From the IMG/VR virus record IMGVR_UViG_2579779084_000014: a stretch of DNA of 36,749 nucleotides; one strand, written 5' to 3'. The notes beneath the pieces are model-generated. The model did not search any database. It was not told the origin of the DNA and was given only the letters and a program-made list of their open reading frames with translations. This DNA is from a virus (taxonomy: Duplodnaviria; Heunggongvirae; Uroviricota; Caudoviricetes). The translations under genes and the position numbers were made by a program. Below, one piece after another: positions 1-8,619 of this stretch (positions are counted from its first letter, which is position 1; the number at the start of each line of letters is the position of its first letter).

Positions 1-1698
1 TCAGGCGATAAGGTCACCGTATTTTTCGCGCAGGCTCGTAGCCTGTTGGGCGTCTGCGGCAAGTTCGCTGCTGTTTGTTGGTGCGCCGGTGTTGCTGTGG
101 GTGTGGTTTGCAGTGTGTGTGGCCAGCAACTGAACCAGATCCAGAATATCAATCAACAACGTCAGCAGATTAAGTCCGGATTTTTCCCGTGAGTCACCGC
201 GACCAATAAATACTGTCGGGGCTGTAAACTCCAGGCCACCGTCCGCTCGGCATGTTCTGCGGCCTCCCACGTTTTCAGTAAGGTCGTGTTCAATCGTGGA
301 TGTAGCCCCTTTGAGTTTAGTCAGCAAATCCTGCGCTACCATCTGGATATGCTCACTGGCTGCGATCGCGTAATGGCCGGTAGTAAGGTGCTCTATTTGT
401 CCTGCCATTAGCTTGCTGGTTCCCAGAACGCTGGTTATATCGTTTGCCTGTACTGTGGTTGTTCTGGTTGTTGTTGTGCGTTCCTCCTGATCGCTGTTAA
501 TGGTTCGCCGGGCTGAATGTTCTCTGATTTGCTGGTCGGTTTCTCTGTGCCAGCTTCCGTCAGCCGTGACGCGCTGAAACACTTCTGCGCGCTGTTGCTG
601 CAGCTGTTCGCCGGGCTTTACATCAGGCAGGTTATGGCCAGCGGGTAAGATTTGCCTGATAACGGGTTTGTCCGGACGTCCTTCAATGTTGGATATTTCC
701 ACGATGGTGCCTGCCGGTGGGTAGGCAAAACATCCCGCCTCACTGCCAGCCATGGGGACGGGGAGCGGTACTGCCGGGTAAACGGGCGTGTCGCTTTTAT
801 CGTTGCCGTTCTCATCAAGCAACTGCACATCGACGGCGTAGCGTGGGCGGAAACTGTCGGCCACATCGCCCAGGGTGGTGGGCTCCGTTGGCGCAATGAC
901 GCGCGCCAGCCGGGTATGTAGCGTACCGCTGGCCAGTTCCGGGAACTGTGTTTCCATTTGTCTGCGTAATGGTGATTTGGAAACAGGGTTACCCGTGGCG
1001 GTAAGGCGCTCCCATGTCAGGGTCATTTTCTCGTTGTTGAGGGCTACACGGGTAATGCGCCCGGCCGGTAGGTTCACGCCCGGTCGCACAGTTTCCATAA
1101 ACATGATGTCGATGCTGTTTCCGCCGCTTTGCCCGAGTGTGTACTGTTGCGGAATATCCGGCATTGTAATACTGGCAAATCGTGAATCAGCTGCGCTTCC
1201 CACAAATACAGAACCGTCCGGCATAGGGTGCCAGACGTAATCGCTGATACTGAATGCTCGCCCCAGTTGGCTGAGCAGTTGTGCTCCGCTGCCGCTGTGG
1301 GTGATGTAGGGAGTTGGTATACTGGCATAATCCGCATCCGGAGTGATAAAAACGATACCGCTTTGTCGCCCCAGATTATCGAGTACCCCCCGCAACGTCG
1401 GGTGTTGCATGGAGCAAGGGAAATCAAAATCCAGCACAGCAGCCGCTTCACGAATAAAAAGGCGACGTGAGCCATTTTCAGCAGGTTGATCGCGCTCAAT
1501 GTAGCCGGAGAAATAGCGCCATGCTTCACCGTCACGGCCGAGATCAATTTGTACCATTGCGCCGGCAAGGCTGTGTTCGGGTGACAGATTGTTAACAGAA
1601 ATGAAGCCACGACCGGCAGCATTCAGGGTAAGAACAAGGTTTATATCGGCAATTTCCACCCGTTCGCCATTAATCATACAGCGTTGTATTAATTTCAT
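1..1698 (-). CDS. hypothetical large protein, C-terminally truncated by the window edge (at least 565 aa)
   Basis: Long uninterrupted ORF coupled to the upstream 191-aa ORF; Thr-rich stretch TTTTRTTTV and His-rich ATHTANHTHSNTGAPT near the window edge; no family recognised. Confidence 0.55.
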   Translation of the reverse strand: MKLIQRCMINGERVEIADINLVLTLNAAGRGFISVNNLSPEHSLAGAMVQIDLGRDGEAWRYFSGYIERDQPAENGSRRLFIREAAAVLDFDFPCSMQHPTLRGVLDNLGRQSGIVFITPDADYASIPTPYITHSGSGAQLLSQLGRAFSISDYVWHPMPDGSVFVGSAADSRFASITMPDIPQQYTLGQSGGNSIDIMFMETVRPGVNLPAGRITRVALNNEKMTLTWERLTATGNPVSKSPLRRQMETQFPELASGTLHTRLARVIAPTEPTTLGDVADSFRPRYAVDVQLLDENGNDKSDTPVYPAVPLPVPMAGSEAGCFAYPPAGTIVEISNIEGRPDKPVIRQILPAGHNLPDVKPGEQLQQQRAEVFQRVTADGSWHRETDQQIREHSARRTINSDQEERTTTTRTTTVQANDITSVLGTSKLMAGQIEHLTTGHYAIAASEHIQMVAQDLLTKLKGATSTIEHDLTENVGGRRTCRADGGLEFTAPTVFIGRGDSREKSGLNLLTLLIDILDLVQLLATHTANHTHSNTGAPTNSSELAADAQQATSLREKYGDLIA

Positions 1699-2270
1699 GT
1701 TTTCCCTTCCTTTTTCACGCTCCCGATGCCAATCCAGTCCAGCCCGGAGCCAATACCATCATTGATATTTTTCCAGAAAGTTTCCTGGGTATTCATTCCT
1801 TTATCCGGCGTCAGCTCACTGCCGTTCTGTGTCTGCTGCTTTGCGATTGTTTTCTGTGAGCCACTGCGTGCCGATGCTTTTTCCGGCACGCTTAATTTTT
1901 CCCTGAGAGTAAAGGTGACCTGCCAGTGCATTTTCCCCTGTTGTTCCGTGGCATCAATGCCACCAGAAAATACCCCCTGTCGCATATTGATTGCCTTCGC
2001 GGTAGCGTTGGCAATGCGATACGTTTTTTTAGCTCCGTTACTTTCTGTTGCCTCCGCAAGCTGAAAAATACGGGTCAGAATAGCTTCATCGTTAAAGTCA
2101 ATAACCCCCGACACGCGCAGCTCTTTAGCCTTGTTTCCCTGCTGAGCGCTCGTGGTGCTGGTTGACTGTCCGGACATATCTTTATCCGGTAGTTGCATGG
2201 TGGCGCTGACGGTGATGTTGCGCAGCAGAATGGCTTCCCCGTCAAGTGCAAGGACAATCATCTGGGTCAT
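1695..2270 (-). CDS. hypothetical protein (191 aa)
   Basis: Co-directional ORF; overlaps the next ORF by 4 nt (ATGA-type coupling). Confidence 0.5.
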   Translation of the reverse strand: MTQMIVLALDGEAILLRNITVSATMQLPDKDMSGQSTSTTSAQQGNKAKELRVSGVIDFNDEAILTRIFQLAEATESNGAKKTYRIANATAKAINMRQGVFSGGIDATEQQGKMHWQVTFTLREKLSVPEKASARSGSQKTIAKQQTQNGSELTPDKGMNTQETFWKNINDGIGSGLDWIGIGSVKKEGKT

Positions 2271-2991
2271 GTAGTGCTTCCCTTAGTGATGAGAGATCAT
2301 CGCCGACGAACAGCATCACAGCTGTAAAAACCCACTCGGGGTGTGGGATGTTTTTTTGTATCAGCGCTGCGGCCTGGCTAAGGACTCCCTTGTAGCAAAA
2401 GCGCCACACCGGGCAAAATTTTTGCCGGAGTGCGGCCTGCTGATCAGCGATTTCCTGTAGAGCTTTATCTCTCGCATTCGCGAACTGACGCAGCTCTGAT
2501 GACAATGTTTCCGGTGATGTGGCAGCAGGAGTAGCTGCCTGTGCAATGGTTGCAGCCAGCGACATGCTGCGAGTGGTCTGTGTCGACAGCATTATCGGTT
2601 CCGGAAGTGATGTTACCGGTCTGGCGGGGATTTGCATTCTGCTGATGGTCAGCGAAAGTTGGCTGGAGATCATACGGGACATTCTCCCTATTTCTGGCAA
2701 CGGAAATGCACCTGAAAATTGTCTGGCAAGCGATAAAAACTCAGCAACAGACGGGGCGCAGAATAACATCGCCACGACGTCTTTTTGTGTATTTTCTGTC
2801 AGATACGGTAAAAGTGCAGACACTGCATTATCCGGACTGAGGTAGCGTCCCGATGGTGTGGTATTCCCTGTATTTACTGACCATGGGTGGAAACAAATCA
2901 TTGAACTGGTGATGTTTATGGGGTGCGGGTGCAGAATTGAGACCGCCCAGTCAGGGCGGTTATTTTTATTGTCTTTCAAATGAATATTCAT
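2242..2991 (-). CDS. hypothetical protein (249 aa; start uncertain)
   Basis: Co-directional ORF with a helical-looking C-terminal half; a GC-rich hairpin lies inside the first 20 codons, so the true start may be an internal Met. Confidence 0.4.
   Translation of the reverse strand: MNIHLKDNKNNRPDWAVSILHPHPINITSSMICFHPWSVNTGNTTPSGRYLSPDNAVSALLPYLTENTQKDVVAMLFCAPSVAEFLSLARQFSGAFPLPEIGRMSRMISSQLSLTISRMQIPARPVTSLPEPIMLSTQTTRSMSLAATIAQAATPAATSPETLSSELRQFANARDKALQEIADQQAALRQKFCPVWRFCYKGVLSQAAALIQKNIPHPEWVFTAVMLFVGDDLSSLREALHDPDDCPCT
2942..2970 (+). terminator. terminator-like hairpin ACCGCCC-AGTCA-GGGCGGT followed by TATTTTTATT (plus-strand orientation)
   Basis: 7-bp GC stem plus T-rich tail; lies inside the 5' end of the annotated 249-aa minus-strand ORF. 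Confidence 0.3.
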
Positions 2992-3023
2992 AGGTGTGTG
3001 AGATATTGCTGGTACTTGCGCGG

Positions 3024-4127
3024 TTACTGTCGGGAGGTTGTGGGTTGGTTATATAACTCCGTTGCAAAAATTATCTCTCCTTCAGTAAATGGGATATCTC
3101 CGTCAGGCTGTGTCGTAAAACTCTGTGAGACAGTCGTCCAGCTGTTTGTGTCAGCCTGCACGTCATTCTCTGTAACTGTTTCTCCTTCATGGCTTCCGCT
3201 TTTTACACTCCAGGCCAGGCAGTTATTGGGGGCGTCCGCACTGCGATAAGTGACAGCCGCCATAACTGCGACCAGATCGCCATTGCTGTTATCTACCGCA
3301 CCAAACGTAACCTGTGCCGCCTCCGGGGACGGTGAGAGCATCAGGTATCCGGCATTACTGTCAGAGGTGTTCAGTCCCGTGACGATATCTTTATCCAGCG
3401 AGTTTTTCGCACTCCCCCCGGTAAATGCGGTTACCGGGCTGTATCTGACCTCAATAGCCCCAAGCAGGGCGGGTTCCGCGCTGTTATTTTTTCCGTATGC
3501 CACTGTTCCACAGTACATATCACCCAGCATTAACGTGCCGGATGCACCTGATGAAAAAATATTGTCACCACTACCAATACTCACCTGAATTTTGTCAGTC
3601 CGGTCATCTGATACATAAAACGATGTATTTCCAGCTAATGAGCGGTTGCAGTACAGACTGGCTGAGACATAGCCGTTTTCGTTTCGCGTTGCGAAAATTT
3701 CATAGTAATAACTGGCTGCTTCATCAGGATACGGGGTTGTAAATGAATAGCCATTAATCCTGATGTGGGATGGCGAAGATGAATATTTCTTTCCCGCACT
3801 TAATGTCAGACGAAATCCCAGCTGTACAGCTGAGGCTTTTAAGTCCGGAAGTGTGCTGTACAGTGTGACATATGAGGGTGTCGTGAAAATCAGCCCCGTT
3901 CTTTCTACAGTATTTACGGCCTGAGTGCCACGACAGACGGATGTTACAGAACCGGACATATCATTGATAAGCGTGACACCGTTTTCGTTCAGTGCTGAAA
4001 TAATATTTGTTGAATAATAGTTCTCGCACAATCCCTCATTCGCCGGAATTTGTCGAAAACTTTCGAGTTTTATAATATTCAAGGTCTGCTTTCCTTTTGT
4101 GTCGGTTAATATATTTCTGAATACCAC
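3024..4127 (-). CDS. hypothetical Ser/Thr/Gly/Asn-rich protein (possible receptor-binding or tail-associated protein)
   Basis: 367-aa ORF 12 nt downstream of the Tfa-like gene; beta-rich S/T/G/N/Y composition; visibly AT-richer than the phage core. Confidence 0.5.
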   Translation of the reverse strand: MVFRNILTDTKGKQTLNIIKLESFRQIPANEGLCENYYSTNIISALNENGVTLINDMSGSVTSVCRGTQAVNTVERTGLIFTTPSYVTLYSTLPDLKASAVQLGFRLTLSAGKKYSSSPSHIRINGYSFTTPYPDEAASYYYEIFATRNENGYVSASLYCNRSLAGNTSFYVSDDRTDKIQVSIGSGDNIFSSGASGTLMLGDMYCGTVAYGKNNSAEPALLGAIEVRYSPVTAFTGGSAKNSLDKDIVTGLNTSDSNAGYLMLSPSPEAAQVTFGAVDNSNGDLVAVMAAVTYRSADAPNNCLAWSVKSGSHEGETVTENDVQADTNSWTTVSQSFTTQPDGDIPFTEGEIIFATELYNQPTTSRQ

Positions 4128-4138
4128 AAAAAGTTAGC

Positions 4139-4657
4139 TCATGGTTTTTGTGGCCATTGAATAAAATCAAAAGACTCCTTATCACTCACATGACTTAAAT
4201 TCAGAGCCTTCACCTCTTTGATATACGCCATCCACTGCATCAGGTGGGCCTTGTCGTCATCACTGATGGTGCCCAGCTCCAGCTCGGTTTTCCAGTCAGA
4301 TGTGATGTCCTTTGCTTCAGTCAGCAGATGCTGGCGTTGTTTTTCTGCCAGTTGCGAATAATCAACAGGAACCGGCAGCACTTCGCCGTCTTTGTAATAC
4401 CAACTGGCTTCAATGCCAAAACCTTCCGGCAGTTCATCAACTTCCACAATGGTGAAACCTGTCGGATAAAGACGGGACACGTCTTCCGCCATTGAATAAA
4501 TCACGCCACTTTCAGGGTGAATGCACAATTTGTATCTCTTCGTGAATTTGTCCATGGATTCATAAAAATCCTGTCCGTCTTCACTGCGGAAATACTGAAT
4601 GCCTTCACCATAAGGCATCTCTTTCGGGTAATAACGCGTGACGTTTCTGAGTTCCAT
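4139..4657 (-). CDS. tail fibre assembly protein (Tfa/U-like chaperone)
   Basis: Start at internal ATG with AAGGAG SD (MELRNVTRYYP...); directly follows the tail fibre gene; visibly AT-richer. Confidence 0.65.
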   Translation of the reverse strand: MELRNVTRYYPKEMPYGEGIQYFRSEDGQDFYESMDKFTKRYKLCIHPESGVIYSMAEDVSRLYPTGFTIVEVDELPEGFGIEASWYYKDGEVLPVPVDYSQLAEKQRQHLLTEAKDITSDWKTELELGTISDDDKAHLMQWMAYIKEVKALNLSHVSDKESFDFIQWPQKP

Positions 4658-4671
4658 TATTTTCTCCTTAA

Positions 4672-5475
4672 TTAGCCGGATACCGTGCGCCATCCGCCAT
4701 TGATATAAATCTGAGTTTGTTTGTAATACACGCCGCCGATGTTATCCGCAGAGCTCTTGCCAGTTTCCTGAACGTTAATACCTGACAAAATACAACCTGA
4801 AGGCGCGCGAAATACCCAGGAAATTTCGTTACCACCGGGATTGTGAAACACTTCGCTGGTATACCTGAAATCACGTACTGCACCAGAATCGGTGCTGCTG
4901 ATAGTGATATCGCTACTGCCATCAAACAGCACATTGTTAATCCTGCGGGCCGTCTGAAGCCGGGTTGCCGTTCCGGCGTTGCCGCTGATGTTGTTGATGG
5001 TGATATCCGAAGTCAGGGGCATGTTGTTGACCTTACGCGCTTTTGGCACACCGCTGATGTTATCCAGAAACAATTGTTTATTCGGGATGTCTGCGCCGTT
5101 ACGGTCTTTTGCCAGTCTGGCGTTTGCGTTATCCATCGCAATCCTGACCGCTTTTGGTGTAGCCGCTTCTGTTTCTGATTCACTGTTAACAGCACTGTTA
5201 AGCCGCACTACGCCTTTTTGCGTCAGCGATGCATCCGGGACTTTCTGGCCAATAAACGAGGTCAGCGCCTCAACCAGCTGGTTTTGTTTTTCCGGGTCAG
5301 GGGTGACGCCAGCCTCTTTAAGGACGTTAATCACCTCCTGCTGCAAATCACGTGTTGCTGCCTGATGATTATTCATAAATTCAGCAGTAACGATGGTTCC
5401 CTCAATTCCCTGAGTCGGGTCACCATCATGAAATAACTTATCCGGCGTATTCACCGGGGGCATTAAACTCTGCAT
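4672..5475 (-). CDS. tail fibre protein (short; conserved N-terminal attachment domain)
   Basis: 267 aa; N-terminal MPPVNTPDKLFHDGDPTQG and the SLTQKGVVRLNSAVNSESETEAATPKAV segment resemble the conserved tail-fibre collar motif of P2 H-type fibres; C-terminus ...YINGGWRTV. Confidence 0.75.
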   Translation of the reverse strand: MQSLMPPVNTPDKLFHDGDPTQGIEGTIVTAEFMNNHQAATRDLQQEVINVLKEAGVTPDPEKQNQLVEALTSFIGQKVPDASLTQKGVVRLNSAVNSESETEAATPKAVRIAMDNANARLAKDRNGADIPNKQLFLDNISGVPKARKVNNMPLTSDITINNISGNAGTATRLQTARRINNVLFDGSSDITISSTDSGAVRDFRYTSEVFHNPGGNEISWVFRAPSGCILSGINVQETGKSSADNIGGVYYKQTQIYINGGWRTVSG

Positions 5476-5521
5476 TATTTCTCCTGTAGTTATTACAAAT
5501 AAACAACATCAGACCTTTTGT

Positions 5522-6478
5522 TTAAGGCTCTGTGATAACGGCAAAGTGCAGCCCATTATGGTTAACTACTAATGGGGTACTGCTGTTATTTGCTGTTTGT
5601 AAATGTATTTTGTTAATTGTCATCGGCTCCGTGGTCTGCCTTCCCGACTGCCACTGAACGGTATTAACTGTCAGTGGTTCAATAGTTCGCCGCTCCGACA
5701 ATAGTTGCATTCTGTTAATCAGCAATGGTTCCTGACTCAGGTTTCCCGCCTGAAGCTGCGTATTGTTGATTGTGAGCGGTTTACCTTTCAGTACAGGAAT
5801 AACTGCAAAATGCATTCCGGCATTATTTATCAGCAGAGGCGCATCAGCATGACATACTGACTGAAACTGAATTCTGTTAATTGTCAGTGGTGATACTGGC
5901 TCTGGCTGAGATGTGATTTCATAAGTGAAATAACAGTCTGTAAAAGCCGGTTTAAGGTCTTTAAACGTGTTTTCTAAAATGGATTCACCAAAGGCCGTCA
6001 GCGGTTCGCCGGTTGCCGATGCGCCCGTTCTGAACCGGTAGACAGGTGTTTTTGTCCCGATAACATTGACCTGCCACGCCCAGCGGATTTCTGGTATCAG
6101 CAGGCGGTCGCCGCAGCGGTTTATCCCCACCCGGAATGGTCGCGGCTCCGTAATGGTGATGGTGTAGCCCAGACTGGCGGCAAGGCTTTTGAAGTAAGGG
6201 ATTGACAGCCCCCCCATGGCAGCCATTTTTACCAGAATGTTCTGACGCCGCTCCTGTTGTGTTGCCCCTTCACGAGGAATAACACCGTACACGCGCTCCC
6301 AGTCGGACAGCGTCATCGATGCCTGCAACGGGGTGATTTGTGTCAGAACGCGCGCCGCTGACGCCTTCACGACTTCCATGACGTCAGCCTCGGCTGTCAG
6401 TTCTGCGGAAATATATTTCCCGTTCAGGTCATAACTGACAGGTGGCAGCATGGCGCGAAATAAATCGACCATATTCAT
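5522..6478 (-). CDS. Mu gp48-like tail/baseplate protein with C-terminal peptide-repeat extension
   Basis: Start at internal ATG (MNMVDLF); gp48-like N-terminal part; the C-terminal ~130 aa carries about 7 degenerate repeats (EPLTINRIQFQS, PLLINNAGMHFAVI, PLTINNTQLQ, PLLINRMQLL, PLTVNTVQWQS, PMTINKIHLQ, PLVVNHNGLHFAVI). Confidence 0.65.
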   Translation of the reverse strand: MNMVDLFRAMLPPVSYDLNGKYISAELTAEADVMEVVKASAARVLTQITPLQASMTLSDWERVYGVIPREGATQQERRQNILVKMAAMGGLSIPYFKSLAASLGYTITITEPRPFRVGINRCGDRLLIPEIRWAWQVNVIGTKTPVYRFRTGASATGEPLTAFGESILENTFKDLKPAFTDCYFTYEITSQPEPVSPLTINRIQFQSVCHADAPLLINNAGMHFAVIPVLKGKPLTINNTQLQAGNLSQEPLLINRMQLLSERRTIEPLTVNTVQWQSGRQTTEPMTINKIHLQTANNSSTPLVVNHNGLHFAVITEP

Positions 6479-6482
6479 AAAA

Positions 6483-7562
6483 TCACCCCTCGCGCGGAAA
6501 AGGCTGAATATCAATATTTCCCGGGCGCAACCATTCCCACGTTGACGCGTTAATAATGGCTTTTACGTTGTCCGCTGGCGTAATGATTCGCCGGTCACTG
6601 ACACCGGAAATTAATGAAATCTGGGTTTCCAGTTGTGAAATTATTAATTCCTGCCCCGGCTCCAGCCGGTTCATAAAATCCGTGATAACGTCAGTTATTT
6701 GCGGTTTTATCTGCTCAACGGTCAGGCCGCTGGTTTTTACCCGGACAACGAAATCAACGGCTTTTTTCGTCGGGGCCAGCACCATCGTGTCCTTCGCTGT
6801 GACCGGGCGGACTTCCTCAATATGTGCCAGCACGGCATTAATCAGTTCCTGTGAGGGAAGGTCATTGGCTGACGTAATGGCCACATCAACCGTTCCCAGC
6901 CCACGACGCAATGACTCCACATATGCCGAGGTAACGCCATCCACTTCCAGCGCCCAGCGTTTGTAATCATATTTGTTACCGCCAGCGGGCGGCCTGCGCA
7001 GAATATCCAGATAACGCGCCAGCAGGTCGGCGTCACTTTCCCTGTCCGTTCCGCCGGTCAGGGATTTAATCGTCACCGTGCTGTTGATGCCTTCCGGCGG
7101 ACTGACCAGCGTTGCCGTCTGCGTTGTGGATGCGTTCGTATGTGCGCCCGTGGTGGTGCTTTTTGCCGTCACCTCCGCGCTGCCTTCATCACCGATGGTG
7201 CAGTCTGCGGTGGTGGCCACGCTGACACCTTCACCACGAATTTCCGCACCGGCTGGCAGCATCTTACCGGGTGTACCGGTAATCACTGCCGGGCCGGATG
7301 AGGCCGTTGCTTTTTTACGAAAAACATTGCGCGCGCGGCAGTGCAGCTCCAGATATTCAGGGTCTGCCGTGTCAGGAAACACCTGACGGAGTATCCACCC
7401 CTGATGCATATAAAGCCCGTCAGCCACGCCAGATACGGCATTTGCACGAATGCGGTAATCGCTGTCAGCGCCGGTGTCGATGGTTTCTCCCGGCAGGGCG
7501 TTAGCGATATCACGTAGCTGGCGTTCTGTGTTTTCAGCAACGCCCGGAACTGGAAACGGCAT
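6483..7562 (-). CDS. baseplate J-like protein (Mu gp47-like)
   Basis: 359 aa; baseplate J-like. Confidence 0.75.
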   Translation of the reverse strand: MPFPVPGVAENTERQLRDIANALPGETIDTGADSDYRIRANAVSGVADGLYMHQGWILRQVFPDTADPEYLELHCRARNVFRKKATASSGPAVITGTPGKMLPAGAEIRGEGVSVATTADCTIGDEGSAEVTAKSTTTGAHTNASTTQTATLVSPPEGINSTVTIKSLTGGTDRESDADLLARYLDILRRPPAGGNKYDYKRWALEVDGVTSAYVESLRRGLGTVDVAITSANDLPSQELINAVLAHIEEVRPVTAKDTMVLAPTKKAVDFVVRVKTSGLTVEQIKPQITDVITDFMNRLEPGQELIISQLETQISLISGVSDRRIITPADNVKAIINASTWEWLRPGNIDIQPFPREG

Positions 7563-7965: not shown

Positions 7966-8619
7966 TTAATTAACCGGCGTGTCAGACATGCCGTGTGGGG
8001 TCGGGTGTTTGTGCGTTCCGATTTTAATGCCATTAATGGTGACGTCAACGGAGGTAATCACACCACCCACATGGTTGATGTTGCCTTCAAAGGTGGCGGC
8101 ATATTTCTTGCCCCCACTGATGGCCATGCCACCACTGCCGGTGATTTTACCTTCCACTGTCAGCTTATCGCTGGCCGTCAGTAACGGTGTCGTGAATGCG
8201 GCGTTCTCCTCTGCCTCAACCTCATAGCGTTTGCATTTCACCCGGTAAACGTCACATTCGGTTTCAACAATCCGCCCGCGCTTCAGTACGATTTTCGCGC
8301 CTTCATCGGTATACAGGGCCACCTCGCCGGGTTTCAGTTCCGTCAGGCGATATGCGCCGTGCTCTGTGGCCACGATGACGGTATGGGAGGTATTACCGTT
8401 CAGCGGAACGGCAATACCCATAGAGCCGGGCGGCGGGGATGTGGTGAGGCCGTAATGCTGAAAATACTCCGCACCGTCCAGCTGCTCGCCTGCCAGCCCG
8501 TTCAGCTGGAGAAGCTGTACTTTGGTCGAACTGTCCACCGTACCGGTCACCACCCTGAATGCCTGGCGAACGGTGGCCAGTGCCTGCTGTATGCGCTGAT
8601 TAACCTTGTCCCACATCAT
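7966..8619 (-). CDS. baseplate spike/assembly protein (Mu gp45-like, gpV-like)
   Basis: 217 aa; gpV-like OB-fold plus beta-rich C-terminus pattern. Confidence 0.7.
   Translation of the reverse strand: MMWDKVNQRIQQALATVRQAFRVVTGTVDSSTKVQLLQLNGLAGEQLDGAEYFQHYGLTTSPPPGSMGIAVPLNGNTSHTVIVATEHGAYRLTELKPGEVALYTDEGAKIVLKRGRIVETECDVYRVKCKRYEVEAEENAAFTTPLLTASDKLTVEGKITGSGGMAISGGKKYAATFEGNINHVGGVITSVDVTINGIKIGTHKHPTPHGMSDTPVN

Follow-up and report, generated by a model that had tools for sequence, protein, structure and literature searches.

A portable repeat module at the C-terminus of a gp48 baseplate wedge protein and its linkage to a predicted lectin-like tail protein

Tailed phages owe their host range to modular receptor-binding parts, and to engineer it one needs to know which pieces fit together. 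In phage Mu each baseplate wedge is made up of single copies of gp46 and gp48 and two copies of gp47, and the docking site that anchors the trimeric fibre is a loop of gp48 (residues 133-155; PMC11915804); in systems of the gp37-gp38 type the product of the gene next to that of the carrier is thought to sit on the end of the carrier and to meet the host surface (PMC12892980). The element described here is the C-terminal repeat tail of the gp48 protein encoded by a 36,749-nucleotide (nt) virus record, IMGVR_UViG_2579779084_000014 (the window, by which the whole of this stretch is meant). This tail represents a short, undescribed module, carried both by a baseplate wedge protein and by fibres belonging to three tail types and in every case accompanied by the same lectin-like protein, a member of the family phrog_8291.

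The first 186 residues of the 318-amino acid (aa) window protein constitute a full-length Phage_Mu_Gp48/YmfQ domain, the family of Mu gp48, P2 gpI and E. coli YmfQ (PF10076; BW3 in the cryo-electron microscopy structure of Mu, PMC11915804), and the gene occupies the same place as that of Mu, after Baseplate_J/gp47 and before the tail fibre gene, an order shared by the prophages of E. coli C5 and RIVM_C036569. The window protein differs from the family by ~130 extra C-terminal residues, consisting of seven 17-residue repeats. The open reading frame (ORF) 5522..6514, on the minus strand, has 330 codons and is open throughout, its likely start being the ATG at 6478; the Pfam match to Phage_Mu_Gp48 scores 102.3 bits against a cut-off of 37.4, covers profile positions 5-150 of 150 and spans residues 21-199 of the 330-codon ORF, thus reaching the end of the profile. 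The initial annotation had described the canonical gp48 proteins as being shorter and devoid of such a tail, and this proved right: the length of 318 aa lies outside the range of single-domain gp48 proteins (~170-210 aa; 190, 208 and 211 aa in the relatives examined, the first of these being the C5 protein) and the gp48 matches in all 39 GenBank phage records that have one (tblastn) stop at or before query residue 202. The parts of the gene are:

5525..6478, minus strand: complete coding sequence of gp48/YmfQ with tail, 318 aa, stop codon at 5522-5524 (ORF list and translation; start as in the 190-aa relative)
5919..6478, minus strand: canonical baseplate wedge domain Phage_Mu_Gp48, PF10076 (Pfam; 97% identity to E. 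coli C5 YmfQ)
5780..5890, minus strand: repeat units 1-2, one of the internal type and one 20-residue HFAV-type unit ending ...HFAVIPVLKGK (codon-level repeat table)
5525..5779, minus strand: repeat units 3-7, four of the internal type plus the closing PLVVNHNGLHFAVITEP, i.e., the five-unit form (codon-level table, phmmer)

A nine-residue linker, ITSQPEPVS, joins the gp48 domain to the repeats. The tail proper, encoded by window positions 5890..5525, consists of seven units, each opening with P-[LM]-[TLV]-[IV]-N and starting, in the numbering of the 330-codon ORF, at residues 209, 226, 246, 263, 280, 297 and 314. The spacing is 17, 20, 17, 17, 17 and 17, which corresponds to a period of 17 residues (51 nt) with a single 20-residue unit. 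Units 1 to 6 read PLTINRIQFQSVCHADA, PLLINNAGMHFAVIPVLKGK, PLTINNTQLQAGNLSQE, PLLINRMQLLSERRTIE, PLTVNTVQWQSGRQTTE and PMTINKIHLQTANNSST, respectively, and unit 7, the closing one, reads PLVVNHNGLHFAVITEP. When the tail was compared with itself (BLOSUM62) against 2000 shuffles, z reached 8.0 for a lag of 17 and 4.8 for one of 34, all remaining lags between 10 and 39 giving z ≤ 2.6. The array of about seven repeats over some 130 residues, noticed in the initial annotation, is therefore real and in frame past the Pfam domain, and the two repeats said to end in GxHFAVI are units 2 (GMHFAVI) and 7 (GLHFAVI); the repeat length of 12-14 residues given there must instead be changed to 17 (20 in one unit), as follows from the spacing and from the lag-17 self-comparison. 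The stretch formed by units 3-7 matches the C-termini of tail fibres with expect values (E) from 2e-19 to 6e-7 (phmmer), and the 2+5 layout seen on gp48 looks like a two-unit mini-module followed by the five-unit form known from fibres.

That these repeats could be the product of a wrong reading frame was looked for and excluded. Among the six frames across the repeats only that of gp48, which is continuous with the frame of the gp48 domain, is free of stops, the other five containing 5-13 internal ones. Conserved positions are occupied by synonymous codons (Pro by CCA, CCT and CCG; Leu by CTG, CTC, TTG and TTA; Ile by ATT, ATA and ATC; Asn by AAC and AAT), and 105 pairwise codon comparisons at the five core positions yielded 43 synonymous changes, 32 identities and 30 non-synonymous changes. 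Furthermore, the same seven-unit architecture is present in a second lineage having a divergent gp48 N-terminal domain (L008-type gp48), with a tail that is 47% identical and in which the 2+5 layout is kept, including the 20-residue second unit ending HFA[VL]VPALTGK; between the allele groups within this lineage the non-synonymous and synonymous divergences (dN and dS) are ~0.075 and ~0.23, respectively, with a dN/dS of ~0.3. The single open frame, the synonymous variation and the conservation of the seven-unit architecture in a second lineage indicate that the tail is maintained as protein, and we regard it as very probably a real, selected protein domain.

One annotation weighs against this reading. 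In E. coli RIVM_C036569 (L002 6516-7079; NZ_CP086627.1 332049-332612) the tail-bearing gp48 is labelled by PGAP/RefSeq as a pseudogene, "incomplete; missing C-terminus", and the repeat region is left unannotated in the record. Since the tail is maintained as protein, this call is most likely a consequence of the unexpected extension and not of decay; if so, the annotation can be corrected, because what is listed as a pseudogene looks like an intact, selected fusion.

Searches with the tail gave little by ordinary means: no match was found in Pfam, PHROGs and NCBIfam, none in 50,697 GenBank phage records at E up to 1 (tblastn) and none when the tail alone was compared with 5.8 billion proteins by a word-indexed search, while a PDB profile search with the module, covering all chains at E up to 10, returned just PEX14 at E 0.38. 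With HMMER run exhaustively against 1.84 billion cluster representatives, seven true relatives were uncovered (E 4e-28 to 1e-6), each having the module at its extreme C-terminus, on different carriers:

gp48 proteins: P0001, and P0003 with an immunoglobulin (Ig)-like middle domain
fibres with a lambda Stf-type phage_tail_N anchor: P0004, P0005 and P0011
fibre with a P2 gpH-type Phage_tail_fib anchor: P0006
Phage_fiber_2 fragment: P0002
chimeric remnant: P0009

Three kinds of gp48 protein end in the module, as do fibres whose N-terminal part is of the phage_tail_N, Phage_tail_fib or Phage_fiber_2 type. On fibres it begins shortly past "...APLDSPxFTGxPT(T)PTP...", a motif common to several of them, and these fibres are truncated, the module standing where the distal receptor-binding part would be. 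As defined here, the module comprises at least three units of 16-20 residues opening with P-[LVM]-x-[IV]-N and a closing unit with G-L-[HSQN]-F-A-[VF] within 3-7 residues of the C-terminus. The consensus is P-L-[TV]-[IV]-N-[RSK]-[AVM]-Q-L-Q-[ST]-G-x-x-T-x-E for the internal units (44 distinct ones) and P-L-x-[IV]-N-[RH]-x-G-L-H-F-A-V-[VI]-x-x-x for the closing units (15); the window gp48, with its seven units and its closing PLVVNHNGLHFAVITEP, conforms to the definition and is found by the hidden Markov model (HMM) of the module with E 1.9e-50. To judge from these searches the tail is a portable module without a database family, whose known distribution is in prophages of Escherichia and Raoultella; the extension is accordingly not restricted to one gp48 lineage, as had been considered, being shared with the C-termini of truncated tail fibres.

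Some of the carriers deserve a separate mention. The chimera P0009 (202 aa), in which an N-terminus unrelated to fibres is joined to a fibre C-terminus with a five-unit module, is located in L003 (positions concerned: 4367-5512 and 8001-8609), the degraded remains of a prophage with genes for enterotoxins of the LT-II type (Enterotoxin_a, LT-IIB). In Raoultella (L011/L012, 4036-4980) an ORF for a module-bearing Stf-type fibre of ~314 aa is uncalled upstream of the phrog_8291 gene, leaving an annotation gap of ~1 kb. In L013 (3861-4978) the gp48-Ig-module gene is split by an apparent frameshift into ORFs of 138 and 257 aa; in the near-identical contig L014 (3860-4978) it is intact and encodes 372 aa.

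The number of units is 7 or 6 in one gp48 lineage, 5 or 4 in the gp48-Ig lineage and 5 or 3 in the Stf-type fibres. The suspected variation in repeat number among related prophages is therefore genuine, and slippage is an unlikely cause of it because the DNA of the repeat units is, on average, only ~47% identical and Tandem Repeats Finder reported nothing on the DNA of the tail; the only DNA repeat pairs are 24-42 nt long with 67-80% identity, and the window allele is 100% identical in seven E. coli genomes. On the same grounds tandem repeats at the DNA level were rejected, as was a contingency locus with slippage-prone repeats, in view of the lack of near-identical DNA units; a non-coding regulatory array or an invertase site was likewise discarded, the conservation being at the protein level and in a single frame.

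How the tail came to be attached to gp48 can be read from the closest tail-less relative, the prophage of E. coli C5 (L001), in which 3 bp correspond to 434 bp of the window:

5485..5918, no strand: 434-bp insertion with respect to the closest prophage, which takes in linker, repeat array and stop codon together with a new 37-nt spacer ahead of the fibre gene (BLAST break points)

The two prophages are collinear on both flanks of the insertion, with 96.5% and 90.7% identity. The C5 YmfQ (190 aa) is 97% identical up to ...FTYE and ends VEE*, its stop overlapping the fibre start codon, and thus the insertion replaces just the last three residues of the canonical gp48. The GC content of the inserted block is 42.6%, compared with 54% for the window, and 0.42 at third codon positions (GC3), the corresponding values for the gp48 domain being 53% and 0.60. 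Among 5426 complete E. coli genomes the insertion is present, 100% identical, in seven and nowhere else. The existence of the C5 relative and of the 39 phage records without tail, the foreign composition and the rarity of the insertion argue that the extension is a derived, horizontally acquired addition and, by the same comparison, a recent 434-bp acquisition.

The partner of the tail is encoded further along the minus strand, where the gene order is Baseplate_J/gp47, tail-bearing gp48, a 267-aa fibre, Tfa and the phrog_8291 protein:

3027..4082, minus strand: partner gene, 352-aa phrog_8291-family protein with TTG start and a predicted ConA-like lectin jelly-roll

This ORF (4082..3027) belongs to PHROG 8291, listed as "unknown function". 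In the prophage remnant with the LT-II toxin genes (L003) the gene next after the module ORF encodes a protein 50% identical to its product (E 1e-109); the same module-then-partner arrangement is found in L004 and in Escherichia albertii (L007), where the partner is 99% identical. The linkage was then examined from the side of the partner, by collecting 25 clusters of E. coli and Raoultella proteins, every one of them "hypothetical", with their contigs, 28 viral-contig loci and 11 metagenome loci, and by scanning their six-frame ORFs with the HMMs of both module and partner. Wherever the partner is at least 49% identical, the module is upstream on the same strand, this being the case in 49 of 49 assessable loci (38 from genomes or viral contigs and 11 from metagenomes), many of which are near-identical though no fewer than eight architectures of the carrier are represented among them, in tails of the Mu-like, P2/HP1-like and lambdoid types; L029, which starts inside the partner gene, is outside the assessable loci. 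Module-first scans (single-sequence, viral contigs) recovered just the same contigs. In most loci the module ORF stops 20-30 nt before the partner start codon; in the window lineage (window, L002, L020, L025 and L056) the fibre and Tfa genes intervene, setting the two 1392 nt apart, and neither has been lost. The C5 relative is without tail and without partner, having instead a Stf-type fibre and a DUF4376 protein. It is this two-way linkage across unrelated carriers that constitutes the main argument for tail and partner working together, and a functional coupling of the tail with phrog_8291 is, in our judgment, probable.

The partner gene is found in 63 of the 5426 complete E. coli genomes (~1%), often in 2-5 copies per genome, and its product has no match in the 50,697 GenBank phage records. 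In the six loci inspected its start codon is TTG (window, at 4080-4082; L003, L007, L008, L014) or GTG (L015), with a GGAG-like site 7-10 nt ahead of it; such starts, near the stop of the module gene, hint at low or coupled translation. In the window the gene is a hybrid: to the left of ~3640 the window matches the P2/HP1-like prophage of E. albertii (L007; 99.5% over 1-4082), and in that stretch there are 97 differing sites within 3053-3634 with respect to the E. coli Mu-like prophage L002; to the right it is L002 that is matched, with two differences in 4083-6600. This pattern suggests that phrog_8291 copies from two distinct prophages have recombined, with a crossover between ~3640 and 4056.

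As to its nature, phrog_8291 has no match in Pfam, NCBIfam and the PDB sequences, homology to Caudo_TAP/gp38 included. AlphaFold2, supplied with an alignment of 23 sequences, gives an all-beta model with a predicted local distance difference test (pLDDT) score of 88.5 and a predicted template modelling (TM) score of 0.88, for which Foldseek finds legume lectins, tandem carbohydrate-binding modules (CBMs) and the receptor-binding domain of botulinum toxin. The model contains a beta-sandwich superposable on those of the ConA-like lectin/glucanase jelly-roll fold (lectins, CBMs or PL7-type lyases), at 4-15% sequence identity to the structural matches. The best superpositions of the full-length model (TM 0.62-0.68) are with uncharacterised phage proteins of equal size, among them one from Achromobacter phage AchV4 (TM 0.65) that was deposited as "virion structural protein"; the tail-module structural proteins of this phage have been detected by liquid chromatography-tandem mass spectrometry (PMC7996906). 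On this model phrog_8291 is probably a ConA-like, glycan-binding and possibly glycan-cleaving tail accessory protein that would be part of the virion; a role in glycan-binding host recognition is a suggestion to which we give even weight for and against.

A mechanism can be proposed which would best account for these properties, namely that the tail is a portable docking module mounting the phrog_8291 glycan binder on the baseplate wedge. We hold this proposal as a whole to be evenly balanced; a physical docking of tail and partner, taken by itself, appears slightly more probable than its absence. With one gp48 in each wedge and six in the baseplate, the tail would put phrog_8291 directly on the baseplate rim, and each of the six wedges would gain a second attachment point holding the lectin-like protein. 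The outcome would be a second, short and baseplate-proximal host-recognition device beside the ordinary 267-aa fibre with its Tfa; in other prophages the module, standing in place of the distal part of the fibre, would hold phrog_8291 at the fibre tip. The docking element may well be chain-autonomous, either a small solenoid or an extended peptide adding strands to the sandwich of the partner, and this is favored over a trimeric shaft because the module works both on a single-copy wedge protein and on trimeric fibres. A more daring version, which we consider rather unlikely, sees in the array a new attachment device in which each unit, or the closing HFAV strand, binds the lectin-like protein by strand addition, so that a single tail, on a wedge protein or a fibre, could carry one or several monomeric glycan binders; by means of such plugs and sockets one accessory receptor-binding protein would be shared across Mu-like, P2/HP1-like and lambdoid tails, and the 2+5 layout would mean two sockets per wedge.

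If the tail is a docking site, it would represent a compact, transferable adaptor of ~50-120 residues capable of adding a second specificity to a phage or a tailocin, and "hypothetical" genes of ~1% of the complete E. coli genomes would find an explanation.

Several observations weigh against the proposed coupling and docking. The adjacency of module and partner could reflect the inheritance of a two-gene cassette, although the cassette is split in the window lineage. A single module would have to serve both a trimeric fibre and a single-copy wedge protein. The partner is conserved over its entire length and is not, like many receptor-binding proteins, conserved at the N-terminus and variable at the C-terminus. 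The single-sequence AlphaFold2 model of the 318-aa protein, which shows two short strands per unit, is unusable, with a pLDDT of 37.7 (25-35 across the tail). Finally, no module was detected at the most distant phrog_8291 loci, L009 and L006 (40% and 30% identity), where a small separate ORF shows weak resemblance to it, with 8.5 bits in a two-sequence search for L009 and no match reported for L006.

These small ORFs, of 84 aa in L006 (5718-5972) and of 64 aa in L009 (4794-4988), lie in lambdoid prophages between a complete Stf-type fibre and the partner; their products start with MF(A/M)LLL(N/S)GK and have Pro-initiated repeats of ~17-18 residues. They may be, as far as their sequences go, the free-standing counterpart of the module.

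The alternatives to be weighed against docking concern the tail, the partner or both. One of them is that the repeats act directly as the adhesin, or as a thin fibre touching the host surface, and that phrog_8291 is independent of them. The C-terminal place usual for receptor-binding domains, which the module holds in the fibres, and the variation of repeat number between lineages are what one would expect in this case; the linkage with phrog_8291, complete across several carriers and three tail types, is not, nor are motif positions that are conserved rather than hypervariable, the lectin-fold protein is the more plausible ligand binder, and the tail on gp48 is a single chain instead of the trimer typical of fibres. 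We regard this alternative as improbable. As a consequence, the host-recognition role suggested for the tail in the initial annotation is retained in that the tail belongs to a host-recognition gene cluster, while its strict linkage to a separate lectin-like protein makes the tail likelier to be an adaptor than the adhesin itself.

To the same extent improbable is that phrog_8291 is an assembly chaperone, comparable to Tfa and to T4 gp57A/gp38, which would fold or cap the module and might not be in the virion. Its gene is indeed placed as those of fibre chaperones are, 20-30 nt past the module-bearing gene, and the conservation of the protein over its entire length would suit such a function, yet it has no similarity to Caudo_TAP or to other Pfam or NCBIfam families, a ConA-like lectin fold of 350 aa is unlike that of known fibre chaperones, its structural relatives of the same size in phages include the deposited virion structural protein, and the locus already has a Tfa for its fibre.

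Adenovirus fibre shaft repeats (..PLTV..L.L..) resemble the module unit in length and in the alternation of hydrophobic residues, a likeness to be taken only as a lead. The repeats could accordingly form a trimeric beta-spiral or beta-helix shaft of the adenovirus/reovirus type, the tail being a spacer or stalk, as the two short strands per unit of the low-confidence single-sequence model might suggest; nevertheless, the PDB search with the module profile, at E up to 10, matched none of the fibre chains, whether from adenovirus, reovirus or elsewhere, gp48, present in one copy per wedge in Mu (PMC11915804), has no local three-fold partner, so that the trimeric state applies just to the fibre-borne copies, and unit numbers of 3, 4, 5, 6 and 7 do not point to an intrachain pseudo-trimer. 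This explanation is still less probable than the two preceding ones. Least credible of all, and indeed highly improbable, is that the tail is a non-functional by-product of an insertion that broke the 3' end of gp48 and through which the frame merely continues: the "missing C-terminus" flag of PGAP, the foreign composition of the insert and the rarity of the allele (7/5426 genomes) would fit, but the single open frame with synonymous variation at the motif positions, the seven-unit architecture kept at 47% identity on another gp48 backbone in many genomes, the dN/dS of ~0.3 and the replacement of merely the last three canonical residues do not.

The surroundings of the locus are those of a Mu-like transposable prophage, the window encoding a MuA-type transposase, a MuB-like ATPase, a sheath protein, a DNA-circularisation protein and baseplate proteins gp44-gp48. 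The genes flanking gp48 and its tail are:

6483..7562, minus strand: Baseplate J/gp47 wedge protein, directly upstream of gp48 (Pfam, 227.5 bits)
4672..5475, minus strand: ordinary tail fibre protein of 267 aa with a Phage_fiber_2 repeat, between the tail and the partner gene (Pfam)
4139..4693, minus strand: tail fibre assembly protein, Caudo_TAP (Pfam)

This fibre gene is also the one that comes after the short gp48 in E. coli C5. Past the partner gene, at 4-2991 on the minus strand, the window holds three ORFs of another tail type. One encodes an HP1_ORF34 baseplate protein of 191 aa (PF25759, E 5e-53); the products of the other two are a 249-aa protein without family and a 565-aa protein, part of which is weakly VgrG-like. 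In place of these ORFs, the partner gene of E. coli RIVM_C036569 is followed by the host gene dtpB.

The arrangement can finally be set against the systems that it resembles most. In T2/PP01 gp37-gp38 (PMC12892980), in Mu gp49-gp50 and in lambda Stf-Tfa (both cited in PMC11915804) a fibre tip is combined with a separately encoded adhesin or chaperone, and the likeness consists in a carrier with a conserved C-terminal element followed, in most loci, by the gene of the partner. The window differs in that a wedge protein takes the role of the fibre as carrier and that the partner gene is 1.4 kb away; phrog_8291 in turn differs from gp38 and Caudo_TAP, to which it bears no sequence similarity, in its ConA-like predicted fold.

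Adenovirus fibre shafts and the reovirus sigma1 triple beta-spiral likewise have short repeats, 15-17 residues long, in which a Pro is conserved and hydrophobic residues alternate, located on a virus vertex or tail structure. The window tail departs from them in that no PDB fibre chain is matched by its profile and in that its gp48 carrier is not trimeric.

Phage G7C gp66-gp63.1 is a branched receptor-binding complex with an anchor domain. With CBA120 TSP4-N/TSP2-N (PMC8825819) the window locus would share the idea of a structural protein that offers an extra docking site for a second host-recognition protein. The anchors of CBA120 and G7C are globular T4-gp10-like or XD domains on trimeric tailspikes, whereas the candidate anchor of the window is a short linear repeat array, and family and PDB profile searches revealed no detectable sequence relation between the module and anchors of this type; to the extent that folds were compared, none was seen to be common to the arrangement and either these complexes or the fibre-tip systems. 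On the strength of these comparisons the arrangement is probably best described as a modular adaptor for receptor-binding proteins, of which the module, itself rare, is a previously undescribed component.

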